Part shown: positions 58,281 through 63,585 of the stretch, piece after piece | Numbering within the stretch: position 1 is the stretch's first letter | Layout: each line of letters opens with the position of its first letter | From: Felixounavirus LF110P2 | Strand: one strand, 5' to 3' | Length of the DNA: 64,000 nt | Sequence record: OZ035782.1 | Notes under the pieces: generated by a model | Told to the model about the DNA's origin: nothing | Seen by the model: the letters and a program-made list of their open reading frames with translations, nothing else | The model's database searches: none | Translations under genes and position numbers: made by a program

Positions 58281-58357
58281 CTCTGTTTAGCTCAGCTTGG
58301 TAGAGCGTTCCGTTTGGGGCGGTAAGGCCGGAGGTTCAAGTCCTCCAACAGAGACCA
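58281..58357 (+). tRNA. tRNA-Pro (anticodon UGG)
   Basis: Cloverleaf by eye: acceptor CTCTGTT/AACAGAG, D-arm GCTC..GAGC, loop TTTGGGG, T-arm GGAGGTTCAAGTCCTCC, CCA encoded; one mismatch in anticodon stem. Confidence 0.6.
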
Positions 58358-58364
58358 AATTAAT

Positions 58365-58442
58365 GTTCCAGTAGACAAAATGGTATAGTCATCACTCTTT
58401 CAAAGTGGATATTTGAGGGTTCAAATCCCTTCTGGAACGCCA
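58365..58442 (+). tRNA. tRNA-Glu (anticodon UUC)
   Basis: Acceptor GTTCCAG/CTGGAAC, loop CTTTCAA, T-loop GGTTCAAATCC, CCA encoded. Confidence 0.6.
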
Positions 58443-58448
58443 GTTTTG

Positions 58449-58522
58449 ACAGAAGACCAATTACAGCAAACTTAATCTTATTCATCTGAAGGTAAATCGG
58501 ACAAAGAAGAGATTTGGTCTGG
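58449..58522 (+). ncRNA. conserved stem-closed element, copy A (candidate small RNA)
   Basis: ACAGAAGACCAATTACAGCAAA...TTGGTCTGG; 7-bp closing stem AGACCAA/TTGGTCT. Confidence 0.4.
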
Positions 58523-58533
58523 TCATTAAGAAT

Positions 58534-58610
58534 TGCGGGTATAGAGAAAGGGCGTCTCACATGTCTCATTAGCATGGTATCGGCAGGTTCGACTCCTGCA
58601 CCCGCCTCCA
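58534..58610 (+). tRNA. tRNA with CAU anticodon (Met/fMet/Ile2 unresolved)
   Basis: T-arm GCAGGTTCGACTCCTGC, 3' acceptor ACCCGCC + T + CCA; position 1:72 unpaired (U:C); loop CTCATTA. Confidence 0.5.
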
Positions 58611-58615
58611 AATTT

Positions 58616-58680
58616 ACAGAAGACCGTTTACAGCAATATTTATTAAATTTTTAGCGGAAAAATTGAAAGATACGGTCTGG
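58616..58680 (+). ncRNA. conserved stem-closed element, copy B
   Basis: ACAGAAGACCGTTTACAGCAA...ACGGTCTGG; closing stem AGACCGT/ACGGTCT (compensatory change relative to copy A). Confidence 0.4.
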
Positions 58681-58693
58681 TAATACTAAACAT

Positions 58694-58770
58694 GGTTAGG
58701 AAGCACATAAGGTATGTGCGGTCGCCTGTTAAGCGAATGGCACAGGGTTCGAATCCCTGACTAACCGCCA
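58694..58770 (+). tRNA. tRNA-Asn (anticodon GUU)
   Basis: D-arm GCAC..GTGC, loop CTGTTAA, T-arm CAGGGTTCGAATCCCTG, CCA encoded. Confidence 0.6.
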
Positions 58771-58839
58771 AATTTAGGAGAGAAGCGATTGCTCACCGAT
58801 TTGTAAGGTGCAAGTCCTTAGCCTGAATAGAAATTAAAT

Positions 58840-58927
58840 GTGTCGTTATCCCGTAGATGGTAGCGGTGGGGACTGTAAATCCCTTGTCATTGAGACTCGG
58901 TAGGTTCGACTCCTACACGGCACACCA
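58840..58927 (+). tRNA. tRNA-Tyr (anticodon GUA), long variable arm
   Basis: Anticodon stem-loop GGGGA-CTGTAAA-TCCCT, long variable arm, T-arm GTAGGTTCGACTCCTAC, CCA encoded; 88 nt. Confidence 0.6.
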
Positions 58928-58932
58928 ATAAA

Positions 58933-59010
58933 GGTTATGTAGTTTAATTTGGTTAAAATACTCCCCTGTCACGGGAGATGATGAGGGTTCAAATCCCTTC
59001 GTAACCGCCA
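58933..59010 (+). tRNA. tRNA-Asp (anticodon GUC)
   Basis: Acceptor GGTTATG/CGTAACC, anticodon stem-loop CTCCC-CTGTCAC-GGGAG, T-loop GGTTCAAATCC, CCA. Confidence 0.65.
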
Positions 59011-59071
59011 ATTTTGAGAGGGCTATTTAGCCCCTCCCTTAAAGGGTTCTTACGAGTATCCTTTAAAGGAG

Positions 59072-59148
59072 CAGAAGACCAAATACAGCAAGAATGTATG
59101 ATATTTTCAAGCCAATTCAATTTTGAAAAAATTTAAAACTTGGTCTGG
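59072..59148 (+). ncRNA. conserved stem-closed element, copy C
   Basis: GCAGAAGACCAAATACAGCAAG...TTGGTCTGG; closing stem AGACCAA/TTGGTCT. Confidence 0.4.
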
Positions 59149-59161
59149 CTCAAAAAATTTA

Positions 59162-61671: not shown

Positions 61672-62225
61672 GATACTTAAAATATGCTTCATGGATTTTC
61701 TTAGCTTTGCTAGAACCACTTGCAGCAATACTAGCAGTTATCTTAGCACCTTTCGTAGTTCCATTCTACAGTGAGAAGAAAGGACATCTACCTTTCGGAT
61801 TTAGATGGATGGAAACTTATGACAACCCAATTGATGGTGATGAAGGTCACGTTAAAAGATGGGCTAATATTAGATGGATTGGTAAGCTTGGTGTCTATAT
61901 GCAGAGAGTCGGTTGGCTCTGGAGAAACAAAGCTTATAACTTCTCTTACCATGTGTTAGGAAGAGATGTAAAAGATGTTACTAAGTGGAAAGGTAATATC
62001 AACGTAAGTTCTAACCCTGAAGATAATCAGACAGGTTATCTCCTAATGTGGAACAGTAATTCTTGGGGATTATTCGCTTTTATCCCATCAATTAAAGTCT
62101 TTGGTAAACAGTTTTACTGGAGAATTTATGTTGGATGGAAACTTAAAAGTGTTGTCCCAGAAGAAAGAGCATTCTCAAGGGAAAGAGTTATGTTGGCATT
62201 CTTTATTCATCCACTGAGAAAGTAA
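61668..62225 (+). CDS. hypothetical protein (Trp-rich) embedded in the tRNA array
   Basis: 185-aa ORF with hydrophobic N-terminus; ATG 61668 overlaps the previous stop. Confidence 0.45.
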   Translation: MRYLKYASWIFLALLEPLAAILAVILAPFVVPFYSEKKGHLPFGFRWMETYDNPIDGDEGHVKRWANIRWIGKLGVYMQRVGWLWRNKAYNFSYHVLGRDVKDVTKWKGNINVSSNPEDNQTGYLLMWNSNSWGLFAFIPSIKVFGKQFYWRIYVGWKLKSVVPEERAFSRERVMLAFFIHPLRK

Positions 62226-62233
62226 AGATTTAA

Positions 62234-62309
62234 AGGGGATTAGTTTACAAGGTTAAAACCTCGGTCTTTGAAATCGAAGAAGTTGGTTCAATTCCAACAT
62301 CCCCCGCCA
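62234..62309 (+). tRNA. tRNA-Gln (anticodon UUG)
   Basis: D-arm GTTT..AAAC; anticodon stem-loop TCGGT-CTTTGAA-ATCGA; T-arm GTTGGTTCAATTCCAAC; CCA; coordinates anchored to flanking ORF stop/start. Confidence 0.6.
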
Positions 62310-62311
62310 AT

Positions 62312-62390
62312 GCTCCATTACTCCAATTGGCAGAGAGGCCAGACTTAAAATCTGTGTTATGTATCGGTTCGAATCCGATATGGAGTACCA
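62312..62390 (+). tRNA. tRNA with Leu-type anticodon UAA, short variable arm
   Basis: Leu-like D-loop (CCAATTGGCAGAGAGG); loop CTTAAAA; T-arm ATCGGTTCGAATCCGAT; A73; CCA; variable region about 7 nt. Confidence 0.5.
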
Positions 62391-62395
62391 AATTT

Positions 62396-62471
62396 AGCGG
62401 TATAGCATAACTGGCAATGCAGCAGTCTCTGAAGCTGTCTTATTAAGGTTCAAATCCTTATGCCGCTGCCA
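62396..62471 (+). tRNA. tRNA-Gln (anticodon CUG)
   Basis: Anticodon stem-loop GCAGT-CTCTGAA-GCTGT; T-arm TAAGGTTCAAATCCTTA; CCA. Confidence 0.6.
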
Positions 62472-62502
62472 CTTCTAAGGGTTCTTACGAGAGTCCTTAA
62501 AT

Positions 62503-62578
62503 GTGGCCTTATCATAAATGGTAATGACCCATGCTGTGAACATGGTCTATACGGGTTCAAATCCCGTAGGTCACCCCA
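62503..62578 (+). tRNA. tRNA-His (anticodon GUG)
   Basis: Anticodon stem-loop CCATG-CTGTGAA-CATGG perfect; T-arm ACGGGTTCAAATCCCGT; discriminator C73 + CCA; no encoded G-1 (preceding base is T). Confidence 0.65.
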
Positions 62579-62584
62579 ATTTAT

Positions 62585-62660
62585 AGTCCAAGTAGCTTAT
62601 ATGGTTAAAGCGCGTGTCTGAAAAACATGAGAAGAGGGTTCAAATCCCACTGGACTACCA
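62585..62660 (+). tRNA. tRNA-Phe (anticodon GAA)
   Basis: D-arm GCTT..AAGC; anticodon stem-loop CGTGT-CTGAAAA-ACATG; T-loop GGTTCAAATCC; CCA; one acceptor mismatch. Confidence 0.55.
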
Positions 62661-62676
62661 ATTTCAAAGGTGCTTA

Positions 62677-63411
62677 ATGAAAGAGATGACAGAACAAGGT
62701 AAGGAGATTTTTAATCTCTTAAAAACTGGTAAAGGGTTTTCTAACCCCCTTATTACTGGTGCAGCAGTTCTCGGTGGAACCGTAGCTGCCTCTACATCAC
62801 TTGTAAGCTCTATTAGTTCTGTATCAGACCCTACAGTAAAAGATAAGCTTGTTGCTGCTGGACTTACAACAGTTCTGCTTAACAGCTTTACCACGAGTCT
62901 GACAAGCACTACATCAACTACCAAAACACTGACAGATTACGGTCAAAAGTCCATTGATGAGTTTTCATCACGTATGCAGGTAGCAAAAGGTTATTCTAAT
63001 GTTATGGGTGCAGCAGGTGAACAAGTTGGCTGTACACCATTTAGTGGTATTATGGGTGTTGCTACAGAGTATGGTCAAAAAGCTATTGATACGATTAACA
63101 GTGCACTAGACGGTGTTAATGATGTATTAAGTGATTTACAAGACGCTATTGACAAAGGTCTTGATACTATTTCTGATTTAGCTAACCAAGCTGTTAGTAA
63201 GATTAATGAAGGTATCTCGAAGATTACAGCTTATGCAGATGAAGTTGTGCAGATGATTGAAGAAGAAGCTGCCCTTATTGCAGAGTACCTTAAAACGAAT
63301 ATCAATGGGTTCTTAGCAGGTATCTTACCAGACTGGTTTGATGATGCTTGTAAAACTGGTGTAATTGACACTATTGCAACACCAGAAATGAAGAGCGCAT
63401 TACAGAAATAA
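62677..63411 (+). CDS. hypothetical Ser/Thr-rich protein
   Basis: Track ORF started inside tRNA-Phe; start moved to ATG 62677 after AAAGGTG; 244 aa. Confidence 0.5.
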   Translation: MKEMTEQGKEIFNLLKTGKGFSNPLITGAAVLGGTVAASTSLVSSISSVSDPTVKDKLVAAGLTTVLLNSFTTSLTSTTSTTKTLTDYGQKSIDEFSSRMQVAKGYSNVMGAAGEQVGCTPFSGIMGVATEYGQKAIDTINSALDGVNDVLSDLQDAIDKGLDTISDLANQAVSKINEGISKITAYADEVVQMIEEEAALIAEYLKTNINGFLAGILPDWFDDACKTGVIDTIATPEMKSALQK

Positions 63412-63412
63412 T

Positions 63413-63505
63413 GGAAGATTAACCCTAAAAGGTAAGGGAGCAGTTTGCTAAACTGCCAGTAGCTGAGAAATCGGTGTACCAGTTCAAGTCTGGTATCTTC
63501 CTCCA
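63413..63505 (+). tRNA. tRNA-Ser (anticodon GCU), long variable arm
   Basis: Acceptor GGAAGAT/ATCTTCC perfect; D-stem CCC/GGG; anticodon stem-loop GCAGT-TTGCTAA-ACTGC perfect; about 21-nt variable arm; T-arm ACCAGTTCAAGTCTGGT; CCA. Confidence 0.7.
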
Positions 63506-63509
63506 ATTT

Positions 63510-63585
63510 GAATCCGTGACAGAAATGGATATGTGCCTGTCTGCAAAACAGGTTTATAAGGGTTCGAGTCCCTTCGGATTCTCCA
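63510..63585 (+). tRNA. tRNA-Cys (anticodon GCA)
   Basis: Acceptor GAATCCG/CGGATTC perfect; anticodon stem-loop CCTGT-CTGCAAA-ACAGG perfect; T-arm AAGGGTTCGAGTCCCTT; CCA. Confidence 0.7.

Follow-up and report, generated by a model that had tools for sequence, protein, structure and literature searches.

The array of tRNA genes at positions 58281-63585 of Felixounavirus LF110P2 (sequence record OZ035782.1, of which a stretch of 64,000 nucleotides, hereafter the window, was analyzed) raises the question of whether its oddly built members are working tRNA genes, decayed copies, or errors of folding by hand. A first-pass annotation, made from the letters alone, had described 27 genes covering all 20 amino acids, several of them non-canonical. 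We estimate a probability of about 0.7 that the locus is a Felix O1-type cluster whose non-canonical tRNAs are functional and which also includes a Ro60/Y-RNA module.

The array as such was already known. The 5.5 kb around it match Felixounavirus LF110P2 at 100% identity, and scores of Felix O1-like phages of Escherichia, Salmonella, and Shigella match at 94-97% identity. A total of 406 phage records match the stretch, and a run of tRNA genes is annotated in many of them. In relatives, the array lies between a gene for an "RNA-binding protein" of 471 amino acids (aa), upstream, and the gene for the large terminase, downstream. We identify the locus as the tRNA cluster that a Felix O1-type myovirus (Felixounavirus) carries, and most of the array is ordinary for a well-studied phage group. 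The first-pass annotation did not recognize the cluster as a known one, but the anomalies it described are real. Three features appear to be absent from the accessible literature: the uniform loss of the long arm from the leucine tRNAs, the Trp-type gene with its insertion, and four Y-like RNAs beside a gene with a predicted Ro60 fold.

The tRNA genes and their irregular members

With default settings, ARAGORN called 26 tRNA genes, all on the plus strand, in 58281-63585. Rfam family RF00005 was above gathering for 24 of the 26, the exceptions being Met 58534 and Tyr 58840. All 26 show the features of bacterial-type tRNAs (anticodon loop of 7 nucleotides (nt), T loop TTCRANY, D loop with GG); several are irregular, with 3-nt connectors or single mismatches. 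CCA is encoded in every array member but Ser(UGA). The genes, with the evidence for each, are as follows.

58281-58357, plus strand, tRNA-Pro(UGG): ARAGORN; Rfam 57.7 bits
58365-58442, plus strand, tRNA-Glu(UUC): ARAGORN, Rfam
58534-58610, plus strand, CAU tRNA no. 1, initiator-like: ARAGORN structure; below Rfam gathering
58694-58770, plus strand, tRNA-Asn(GUU): ARAGORN, Rfam
58840-58927, plus strand, tRNA-Tyr(GUA), class II, long variable arm, 88 nt: ARAGORN
58933-59010, plus strand, tRNA-Asp(GUC): ARAGORN, Rfam
59443-59518, plus strand, tRNA-Lys(UUU): ARAGORN, Rfam
59524-59600, plus strand, CAU tRNA no. 2, G1-C72, U73: ARAGORN structure, relatives
59602-59677, plus strand, tRNA-Ile(GAU): ARAGORN, Rfam
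60014-60090, plus strand, tRNA-Arg(UCU): ARAGORN, Rfam
60233-60315, plus strand, Trp-type tRNA gene, anticodon CCA at 60273-60275: relaxed ARAGORN, covariation, trpT alignment
60329-60418, plus strand, tRNA-Ser(UGA), class II: ARAGORN; weak Rfam match, 31 bits
60674-60751, plus strand, Leu-anticodon tRNA (UAG), class I shape: ARAGORN structure, relatives, alignment
60759-60834, plus strand, tRNA-Lys(CUU): ARAGORN, Rfam
60841-60916, plus strand, tRNA-Ala(UGC), G3.U70: ARAGORN structure
60923-60997, plus strand, tRNA-Gly(UCC): ARAGORN, Rfam
61004-61079, plus strand, tRNA-Thr(UGU): ARAGORN, Rfam
61176-61250, plus strand, tRNA-Val(UAC), anticodon-stem mismatches: ARAGORN structure, eight phages
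61252-61329, plus strand, Leu-anticodon tRNA (CAA), class I shape: ARAGORN structure, relatives, alignment
61335-61410, plus strand, tRNA-Arg(ACG): ARAGORN, Rfam
62234-62309, plus strand, tRNA-Gln(UUG), A1.C72 unpaired: ARAGORN structure
62312-62390, plus strand, Leu-anticodon tRNA (UAA), class I shape: ARAGORN structure, relatives, alignment
62396-62471, plus strand, tRNA-Gln(CUG): ARAGORN structure
62503-62578, plus strand, tRNA-His(GUG), no encoded G-1: ARAGORN structure, relatives
62585-62660, plus strand, tRNA-Phe(GAA), irregular T stem and acceptor junction: ARAGORN structure
63413-63505, plus strand, tRNA-Ser(GCU), class II, 93 nt: ARAGORN structure
63510-63585, plus strand, tRNA-Cys(GCA): ARAGORN structure

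For the 26 genes, ARAGORN reproduced the anticodon list of the first-pass annotation exactly; it gave neither type II leucine tRNAs nor other anticodons. Since the automated predictors agree with the hand folding on the anticodons and on the short leucine arms, the anomalies are not hand-folding errors. The 27th gene of the earlier count, the Trp-type gene, is called only with relaxed settings and is backed by compensatory changes. The individual oddities were found again as well: the short-armed leucine tRNAs with A73 and Leu-like D loops (in the ARAGORN structures), the 7 extra nt of the Trp-type gene (by comparison with trpT), the poorly paired Val anticodon stem, the CCT after tRNA-Ser(UGA), the missing G-1 of tRNA-His, and the CAU tRNA with an unpaired 1:72 (Met 58534). 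For the comparisons below, eight phages from four genera of the Ounavirinae were used (Felixounavirus, Suspvirus, Mooglevirus, and Kolesnikvirus of Erwinia).

The tRNAs with leucine anticodons UAG, CAA, and UAA are 78, 78, and 79 nt long and have variable regions of 4, 5, and 7 nt, respectively; all have A73. A variable-arm hairpin of more than 10 nt, which defines class II, is absent from all three. Leu(UAG) has an AAUUGG D loop and 2 extra nt 5' of the D stem, and the D arms of Leu(CAA) and Leu(UAA) read UCC-CAAUUGGCAGA-GGA and CUC-CAAUUGGCAGA-GAG. In the eight phages, the Leu-anticodon tRNAs are without exception 77-79 nt long and short in the variable region, with A73; the D arm NCC-CAAUUGGCAGA-GGN is found in nearly all of them, and no array contains a long-armed leucine tRNA. 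The long arms are retained in the Ser (87-93 nt) and Tyr (83-88 nt) tRNAs of the same phages. The anticodon stems of Leu(UAG) differ fully between phages yet are all paired (AUCUCG/CGAGAU versus ACCAUC/GUUGGU), a sign that selection has kept the helix working.

In alignments to E. coli leuX and leuZ, the only gap in phage Leu(CAA) and Leu(UAA) is one of 7-8 nt in the variable arm. The D loop AAU(U/C)GG(C/U)AGA, U8, A14, A15 with U48, G18G19, and A73 are common to the phage and E. coli genes. The determinants of E. coli leucyl-tRNA synthetase (LeuRS) listed in an identity review, i.e., A73, U8:A14, A15:U48, G18G19, A20a, and the D/T loop contacts, are present in the phage tRNAs; according to the same review, this enzyme tolerates loss of the arm if A73 and the D/T contacts are kept, and arm-less variants of E. 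coli tRNALeu stay active (PMC9976931). In a sister phage, the tRNAscan isotype models rank all three as Leu highest (PMC12482277). With the determinants kept, but a Streptomyces type I tRNALeu left uncharged by E. coli LeuRS, it is plausible but not assured that the host enzyme leucylates the phage tRNAs. The three tRNAs would be leucine tRNAs that lost the long variable arm and kept the LeuRS determinants, with the arm persisting only in Ser and Tyr tRNAs, whose synthetase uses it.

We found no mention of a short Leu arm in Felix O1-like phages in the accessible literature, and a BLAST search of one phage leucine tRNA against E. coli genomes returned no match. Arm lengths were taken from the Ounavirinae, T5, one Klebsiella phage (whose leucine tRNAs are ordinary class II, 86 and 89 nt), and a single case of 74 nt. 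The latter is a Leu(CAA)-type tRNA with a short variable region on an unrelated, GC-rich viral contig of 84 kb (IMGVR_UViG_3300046694_000291); from this case, arm-less leucine tRNAs may exist in other phage groups. Textbooks and the identity review have tRNALeu long-armed everywhere but in animal mitochondria, and here common phages of E. coli and Salmonella carry only the short-armed form. In these phages, nature provides an in vivo test of the need of enterobacterial LeuRS for the arm; they also show that some arms can be lost and others, those of Ser and Tyr, are retained.

The Trp-type gene was called Trp(cca), at 60234-60311, by ARAGORN with -ps80 and with -mt. It is conserved in Felixouna-, Susp-, and Mooglevirus. 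Among eight distinct sequences, its 20-pair cloverleaf is 99.4% paired, and both partners have changed in six pairs, four of them in the anticodon stem and one each in the D and T stems; in a control with slid partners, 36-54% were paired and no pair had changed in both partners. The anticodon loop is CUCCAAA (7 nt, U33, A37), followed by G73 and an encoded CCA at the 3' end, and E. coli trpT is nearly identical in the anticodon arm and at the 3' end. Relative to trpT, 7 extra nt lie between the acceptor stem and a D stem of 3 base pairs (bp), so that the canonical 2-nt acceptor/D connector and 4-bp D stem are lacking. This insertion and the entire linker GAUGUUAAGA are invariant among the relatives. 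The anticodon stem has a C31.A39 mismatch. Position 1:72 is A-U in five of the eight distinct sequences; the tRNATrp identity elements (CCA anticodon, U33, A37, G73, A1-U72) were rated as present, the window itself having G1.U72. Directly upstream lies a possible promoter, TTTACA (TTGACA in Moogle)-17 nt-TAAGCT. Erwinia phages have a canonical 76-nt tRNA-Trp in place of this gene.

These comparisons indicate that the Trp-type gene is maintained and derived from tRNATrp, and is not a decaying copy; it would be a descendant of tRNATrp with a trpT-like anticodon arm, a G73-CCA end, and a fixed 7-nt insertion. If counted, this unannotated gene would raise the published total for these phages from 19 to 20 amino acids, and it is a case of phage tRNAs being under-called by standard tRNA finders. 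Other folds and readings of the gene were considered. An 8/4 fold resembling an "allo-tRNA" (G8-C and a 4-bp T stem) fits as well as the 7/5 fold with an A.C mismatch, its columns being invariant. An ancestral D stem GTT/AGC was dismissed because column 30 covaries with column 19, not 13. The gene gives a 23-bit match to the tRNA-Sec model of the Rfam clan; such matches, also seen for Ser and Tyr, are merely sub-threshold clan-model matches to long or odd tRNAs.

The remaining irregularities are conserved as well. tRNA-His has G1-C72, C73, and a T at -1; this T is conserved in three genera, and the Erwinia phage has G. tRNA-Ser(UGA) ends in G73-CC followed by T, with no encoded CCA; the CCT is found in Felixouna- and Mooglevirus, and CCA in CHB7 and the Erwinia phage. 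CAU tRNA no. 1 has T1.C72 unpaired, U37, U73, and a 3-nt acceptor/D connector. The A11:U24 pair of initiator type is present in it, the three G-C pairs of initiators are absent, and the unpaired 1:72 (T.C or C.C) is conserved in relatives along with U37 and U73. CAU tRNA no. 2 could be either a Met elongator or of the Ile2 type. In the laboratory-evolved phage VpaE1_ev035, this second gene (locus 2114-2190, called Thr) has the anticodon CGU, with one base changed and the gene otherwise identical. The anticodon stem of tRNA-Val has two mismatches, C30.A40 and C27.A43, and a mismatch at 30:40 (C.A or U.U) occurs in all eight phages.

The Ro60-fold gene and the Y-RNA-like elements

Neither the gene directly upstream of the array nor four RNA elements in the spacers of its first kilobase had been included in the first-pass annotation. 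Their positions are as follows.

56700-58115, plus strand, gene for a protein with predicted Ro60 fold, directly upstream of the array: Pfam DUF2828 and DUF7788/vWA
58448-58524, plus strand, Y1, a Y-RNA-like element with lower stem GAC/GTC, AGA bulge, AGACCAA/TTGGTCT stem, and ACAGCAA: 34 bits, E 5e-5
58615-58682, plus strand, Y2, a Y-RNA-like element: 45 bits, E 1.5e-7
59070-59150, plus strand, Y3, a Y-RNA-like element: motif, closing helix
59160-59295, plus strand, Y4, a Y-RNA-like element with a tRNA-mimic domain: 172 bits

The AlphaFold2 model of the protein, made with 37 homologues, has a predicted local distance difference test score (pLDDT) of 88.6; the single-sequence model was unusable (pLDDT 45). 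In Foldseek, the top 11 PDB matches were all Ro60/TROVE/Rsr proteins and were full length, with E values from 5e-9 to 2e-6 and template modeling (TM) scores of 0.5-0.66. The proteins matched are frog and human Ro60, Deinococcus Rsr, and the Ro60 from Thermus phage phiLo. The DxSxS motif of the adhesion site that depends on metal ions (MIDAS) in the vWA domain (D279, S281, S283) is invariant in the 37 homologues. By this model, the protein is predicted to have a Ro60 fold, with a ring of HEAT repeats and a C-terminal vWA domain with MIDAS. At the sequence level, there was no match to the TROVE family, with Pfam giving DUF2828 and DUF7788 only; sequence searches against the PDB stayed below significance, and a profile matched Ro60 at E = 1. 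Homologues occur in 709 phage records and are labeled "Ro-like RNA binding protein" in mycobacteriophages. The homologue in the Felixounavirus Bas63, gp130, counters the ppl defense, and the preprint reporting this noted the resemblance to Ro60 and guessed that some annotated tRNAs are Y RNAs (10.1101/2024.10.10.617714). In Klebsiella and Campylobacter phages, the Ro-like gene lies inside or beside tRNA clusters, and in Listeria phage LMTA-34 it lies near a gene for an RtcB-type "tRNA splicing ligase" (locus 5308-6455).

The motif AGAAGACC-N4-ACAGCAA is present in four exact copies between tRNA-Glu and tRNA-Lys, and nowhere else in the 64 kb; with up to two mismatches allowed, there were five matches versus 0.23 expected. 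Every copy makes up the 5' side of one hairpin-closed element; these elements lie 333-1045 nt downstream of the Ro60-fold open reading frame (ORF), and a like neighborhood of gene and elements was found in five other phage groups. A lower stem of 3 bp covaries (GAC/GTC, UAC/GUA, AGC/GCU, UGC/GCA) and is followed by a 3x1 internal loop and a stem of 7-8 bp, AGACCnn/nnGGUCU, of which the last two pairs covary. Over nine paralogues and orthologues, 98.9% of the closing helix is paired, and in 14 cells both sides have changed; with slid partners, 18-44% are paired. The elements are unannotated in relatives, where spurious small coding sequences are sometimes called over them.

Y4 contains, in order, a V hairpin, a perfect T arm (GAAGG-TTCGATT-CCTTC), a closed acceptor-like hairpin, and a D arm (GTGT-AATGGTA-GCAC). 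The acceptor-like hairpin has 7 bp and a four-base loop and covaries between phages; the D part has U8, then a D arm with A14, A15, and G18G19; and the ends of the element sit in the bulged closing helix. A partial Rfam tRNA match falls inside Y4, at 59185-59235. The same order (V, T, acceptor-like stem, D) is known from YrlA, a bacterial Y RNA that mimics tRNA and binds Rsr, an orthologue of Ro60 (PMC4201824). In the window, this order is found in Y4 only; Y1-Y3 have no tRNA-like domain, as in YrlB. A circularly permuted tRNA gene at 59195-59290, with T arm, 3' acceptor, 5' acceptor, and D arm in succession, was considered and set aside because a 4-nt loop closes the acceptor-like stem, the conserved bulged helix that holds the ends is shared with three arm-less paralogues, and the Ro60-fold gene is adjacent.

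A covariance model was built solely from Ounavirinae copies of Y4. Right behind the homologous gene, it matched over its full length twice in Klebsiella phage phi1_175008 (61 bits, E 5e-11; 48 bits, E 3e-8) and once in Mycobacterium phage Nicholas (33 bits, E 7e-5). The T5 tRNA region and the Erwinia phage locus gave no match, and the gene is likewise missing from the stretches examined there; in Vibrio phage PG216, no convincing match lay close to the homologous gene. In Campylobacter and Listeria phages, the model matches are weak, and the elements were found by motif. In a set of 13 annotated loci, inspection by eye of the spacers beside the gene revealed two to five elements with the stem and ACAGCAA per locus in phages of Klebsiella, Mycobacterium, Campylobacter, and Listeria. 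Their 5' stem strand is rich in purines, (U/A)ACAGCAA comes next, and the 3' strand, rich in pyrimidines, runs into UG or AG; a CUGCUAAUGA box is common to several of them, and some have T/AS/D domains. They lie in loci L008, 5426-6135 (Klebsiella), L009, 4411-4805 (Mycobacterium), L131, 2350-2530 (Campylobacter), and L132, 2110-2390 (Listeria). A pattern scan of IMG/VR gave mostly chance single matches.

The distribution suggests that one ACAGCAA RNA family spans phages of four bacterial phyla. Because model and motif find like elements beside homologous genes in other phages, and the model finds none in the T5 and Erwinia stretches without the gene, Y1-Y4 are strong candidates for RNA partners of the Ro60-fold protein. 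For those working on Bas63 gp130 or on phage Ro60 proteins, they provide specific RNAs to consider beside a Ro60-like anti-defense gene.

Decoding capacity and competing explanations

If U34 tRNAs decode whole four-codon boxes, the ACG anticodon acts as ICG, and AUA is served by one of the CAU tRNAs, CGG is the single sense codon that the 27 genes leave without a reader. It is also the least used codon in 50 long ORFs of the window, at 0.9 per thousand. Compared with E. coli, the codons with the strongest enrichment are AGA, AAG, ACA, UCA, CUA, GUA, and CCA, and each has a cognate phage tRNA. This codon use fits both compensation for codon differences and independence from a damaged host pool, and favors neither. 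Coverage of all 20 amino acids, as inferred from the anticodons, would need a working tRNATrp and arm-less tRNAs charged with leucine.

The first-pass annotation had also mentioned internal promoter-like sites. As a whole, these are not enriched (16 versus 13.1 +/- 3.8 expected from shuffled sequence), but three strong sites on the plus strand, at 58134, 58225, and 59693, do stand out:

58134-58254, plus strand, two tandem sigma-70-like promoters before tRNA-Pro: TTGACA-17-TAATAT and TTGACA-18-TAAAGT with TG, 10/12 each
59693-59721, plus strand, strong sigma-70-like promoter after tRNA-Ile: TTGACA-17-TATAGT, 11/12

We infer from their sequence that the tandem sites act as promoters. The array would be transcribed from host-type promoters as several multi-tRNA precursors, which host RNase P and 3' trimming enzymes would cut; Ser(UGA) would depend on the host CCA-adding enzyme, and charging would fall to host aminoacyl-tRNA synthetases. 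With one U34 tRNA per four-codon box, G34 for two-codon boxes, and a few C34 tRNAs plus ACG, the 27 genes would form a nearly self-sufficient set. Such a set would let the AT-rich phage translate A-ending and rare codons (those listed above) and would sustain translation in the event of depletion or cleavage of host tRNAs. The non-canonical members would be functional variants, neither decayed genes nor folding errors, and the locus would be a combined tRNA and Ro/Y-RNA module in which the Y-like RNAs most likely bind the upstream protein.

Several observations weigh against this account. G-1 is a strong determinant for E. coli histidyl-tRNA synthetase, and tRNA-His lacks it. The Trp-type gene is not called by default ARAGORN, by Rfam at gathering, or in the tRNAscan-based annotations of relatives. 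The related phage Sf14 was described with 26 tRNAs for 19 amino acids (PMC12482277), and in Felix O1, published with 22 tRNAs, tRNAscan flagged tRNA-His and tRNA-Tyr as pseudo (PMC3185647). The tRNA genes of Bas63 are mostly non-essential on laboratory hosts (10.1101/2024.10.10.617714). E. coli LeuRS did not charge the type I tRNALeu(CAA) of Streptomyces coelicolor and is said to charge only type II (PMC6614811). The published Rsr motif GNCGAAN0-1G is absent from the Y elements, which have CAGAAGACC...ACAGCAA instead, and the elements match no Rfam family. The pseudo flags, the uncalled Trp-type gene, the dispensability in Bas63, and the uncharged foreign tRNALeu are also what would favor the view that the Leu, Trp-type, His, and Val members are decaying or non-functional pseudogenes and that only the canonical tRNAs work. 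We consider decay improbable, given that the peculiarities are kept across genera whose tRNA regions are ~85-88% identical to the window, with stems preserved by compensatory changes (including the doubly changed pairs of the Trp-type cloverleaf). The wholly rewritten and still paired anticodon stem of Leu(UAG), the invariant 7-nt insertion, and the short form of all leucine tRNAs of the subfamily, those of the Erwinia phages included, with no long-armed copy left, point the same way.

Functional tRNAs might have acquired their structural deviations as an escape from host defenses that target tRNAs, such as anticodon nucleases, toxins acting on the acceptor end, or enzymes recognizing the class II arm, with the Ro60-like protein and Y-like RNAs forming a counter-defense or RNA-surveillance unit that acts together with the tRNA set. 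We regard this as doubtful, though it is better placed than decay. The anti-ppl activity of the Bas63 homologue fits it, as do the association of anticodon-loop differences from host tRNAs with nuclease resistance in the Sf14 paper (PMC12482277) and the binding of host PNPase by the Ro60/Yrl complex of a Thermus phage (PMC12135203). The placement of Ro-like genes next to tRNA genes in Klebsiella, Campylobacter, and Listeria phages, with the RtcB ligase in Listeria, is in line with it too. The streamlining loss of a dispensable arm, however, explains the leucine case equally well, and the Y-like RNAs are tied to the tRNAs by adjacency alone. We know of no defense system keyed on the variable arm of tRNALeu, which also counts against escape. 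It seems quite unlikely, on the other hand, that the four hairpin elements are mere spacers at which the tRNA precursors are processed or terminated (RNase III/E sites). They do lie between tRNAs in the same transcription units, and the T4 and T5 clusters also hold spacers and stable RNAs of unknown function. But ACAGCAA with the purine-rich bulged helix recurs beside the Ro-like gene in phages of four bacterial phyla, the Mycobacterium elements and some of the Listeria elements have no flanking tRNA, and Y4 has a complete T arm, a closed acceptor-like hairpin, and a D arm in YrlA order. In addition, the T5 region and Erwinia locus, without the gene, are also without the elements.

A functional cluster with a Ro60/Y-RNA module thus remains our preferred reading. 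Its most far-reaching form, which we offer only tentatively, would be a complete, host-independent decoding set, with arm-less leucine tRNAs charged by enterobacterial LeuRS and an insertion-bearing tRNATrp overlooked by all annotation pipelines, coupled physically and functionally to a Ro60-like protein and a hitherto undescribed, phylum-spanning family of ACAGCAA Y RNAs that protect or police the phage tRNA pool during host defense. Felix O1-type phages are widely used in typing, biocontrol, and therapy, and the function of their accessory RNA genes is of practical value.

Other features of the array and known systems

Protein genes are also embedded in the array. The two ORFs given in the first-pass annotation are present, and a third had been missed:

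61429-61671 and 61668-62225, plus strand, two overlapping ORFs of 80 aa (no family) and 185 aa (DUF7338): Pfam; coding sequences in relatives
62677-63411, plus strand, third ORF, 244 aa, DUF7217: Pfam; coding sequence in relatives

The DUF7217 ORF is called a "predicted membrane protein" in Sf17 and is kept in the Erwinia phage directly 3' of the tRNAs. In the Felix O1 locus, three genes for HNH homing endonucleases, absent from the window, lie between tRNA genes (locus 2231-2716, 3204-3596, and 4514-4927); the array is a hotspot for homing-endonuclease insertions, as in T5. CHB7 has an ORF for a PD-(D/E)XK endonuclease at the place of 60419-60673.

The sequence at 59295-59442 is a 148-nt element whose ends form a perfect inverted repeat of 24 bp (AATTATCTTTGTAGATAAG.../...CTTATCTACAAAGATAATT), with a minimum free energy of -48 kcal/mol. 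It is found at ~98% identity in 8 of 13 related loci and could be a stable RNA or a miniature mobile element. At 59693-60013, the strongest promoter of the region is followed by ~290 nt of conserved, structured non-tRNA sequence, which ends in a 16-bp hairpin just 5' of tRNA-Arg(UCU); small minus-strand ORFs are annotated there in relatives. The stretch has weak Rfam matches to transfer-messenger RNA (tmRNA), at 59824-60013, far under gathering, which we did not accept as a tmRNA gene, and ARAGORN with -m found no tmRNA. The spacers 60091-60200, 60419-60673, and 61080-61175 are conserved and have hairpin-closed consensus structures; the last of these, 96 nt between tRNA-Thr and tRNA-Val, does not vary in length among the genera.

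The array shares its gene order, anticodons, and flanking genes with the clusters of Felix O1, wV8, Moogle, and Sf14, and its DNA is 95-100% identical to that of many records. The published clusters of Felix O1-like phages have 22-26 tRNAs for 19 amino acids, and the Trp-type gene and four Y-like RNAs are unannotated there. The interleaving of tRNA genes with small ORFs, homing endonucleases, and stable RNAs resembles T4 and T5. In T4, some tRNAs depend on CCA addition by the host, and its tRNALeu is long-armed; the T5 tRNA-Leu is likewise class II, with 85 nt. T5 also has "tRNA-like stable RNAs with unknown functions" (locus 3285-3645, 4809-4980, 5839-6084, and 6878-6950), without a match to the Y model. 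Leucine anticodons with a short variable region and no hairpin arm are known from animal mitochondria and from S. coelicolor tRNALeu(CAA) (PMC6614811, PMC9976931). Unlike those cases, all three leucine isoacceptors are short here (four in Erwinia phages), the D loop is E. coli-like, and the LeuRS of the phage host is the enzyme reported unable to charge the Streptomyces type I tRNALeu.

The gene upstream of the array is homologous to Bas63 gp130 and has the same place directly upstream of the tRNA genes. In contrast to the guess made for Bas63, the Y RNA candidates lie here in unannotated spacers, and the annotated tRNAs look genuine. Several small RNAs beside a Ro60-fold gene are also the arrangement of YrlA and YrlB with Rsr, of mycobacteriophages, CcrColossus, and Bacillus phage G, and of Yrl1/2 in Thermus phage phiLo. 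As in bacterial Y RNAs, the ends of the candidate RNAs are paired in a bulged helix, and one of the RNAs has the YrlA order. The locus differs from known Ro/Y systems in that the protein belongs to DUF2828 and not to TROVE, in that the putative RNAs are interleaved with genuine tRNA genes, and in that they have a purine-rich helix with ACAGCAA where known Y RNAs have GNCGAAN0-1G/CGAA.

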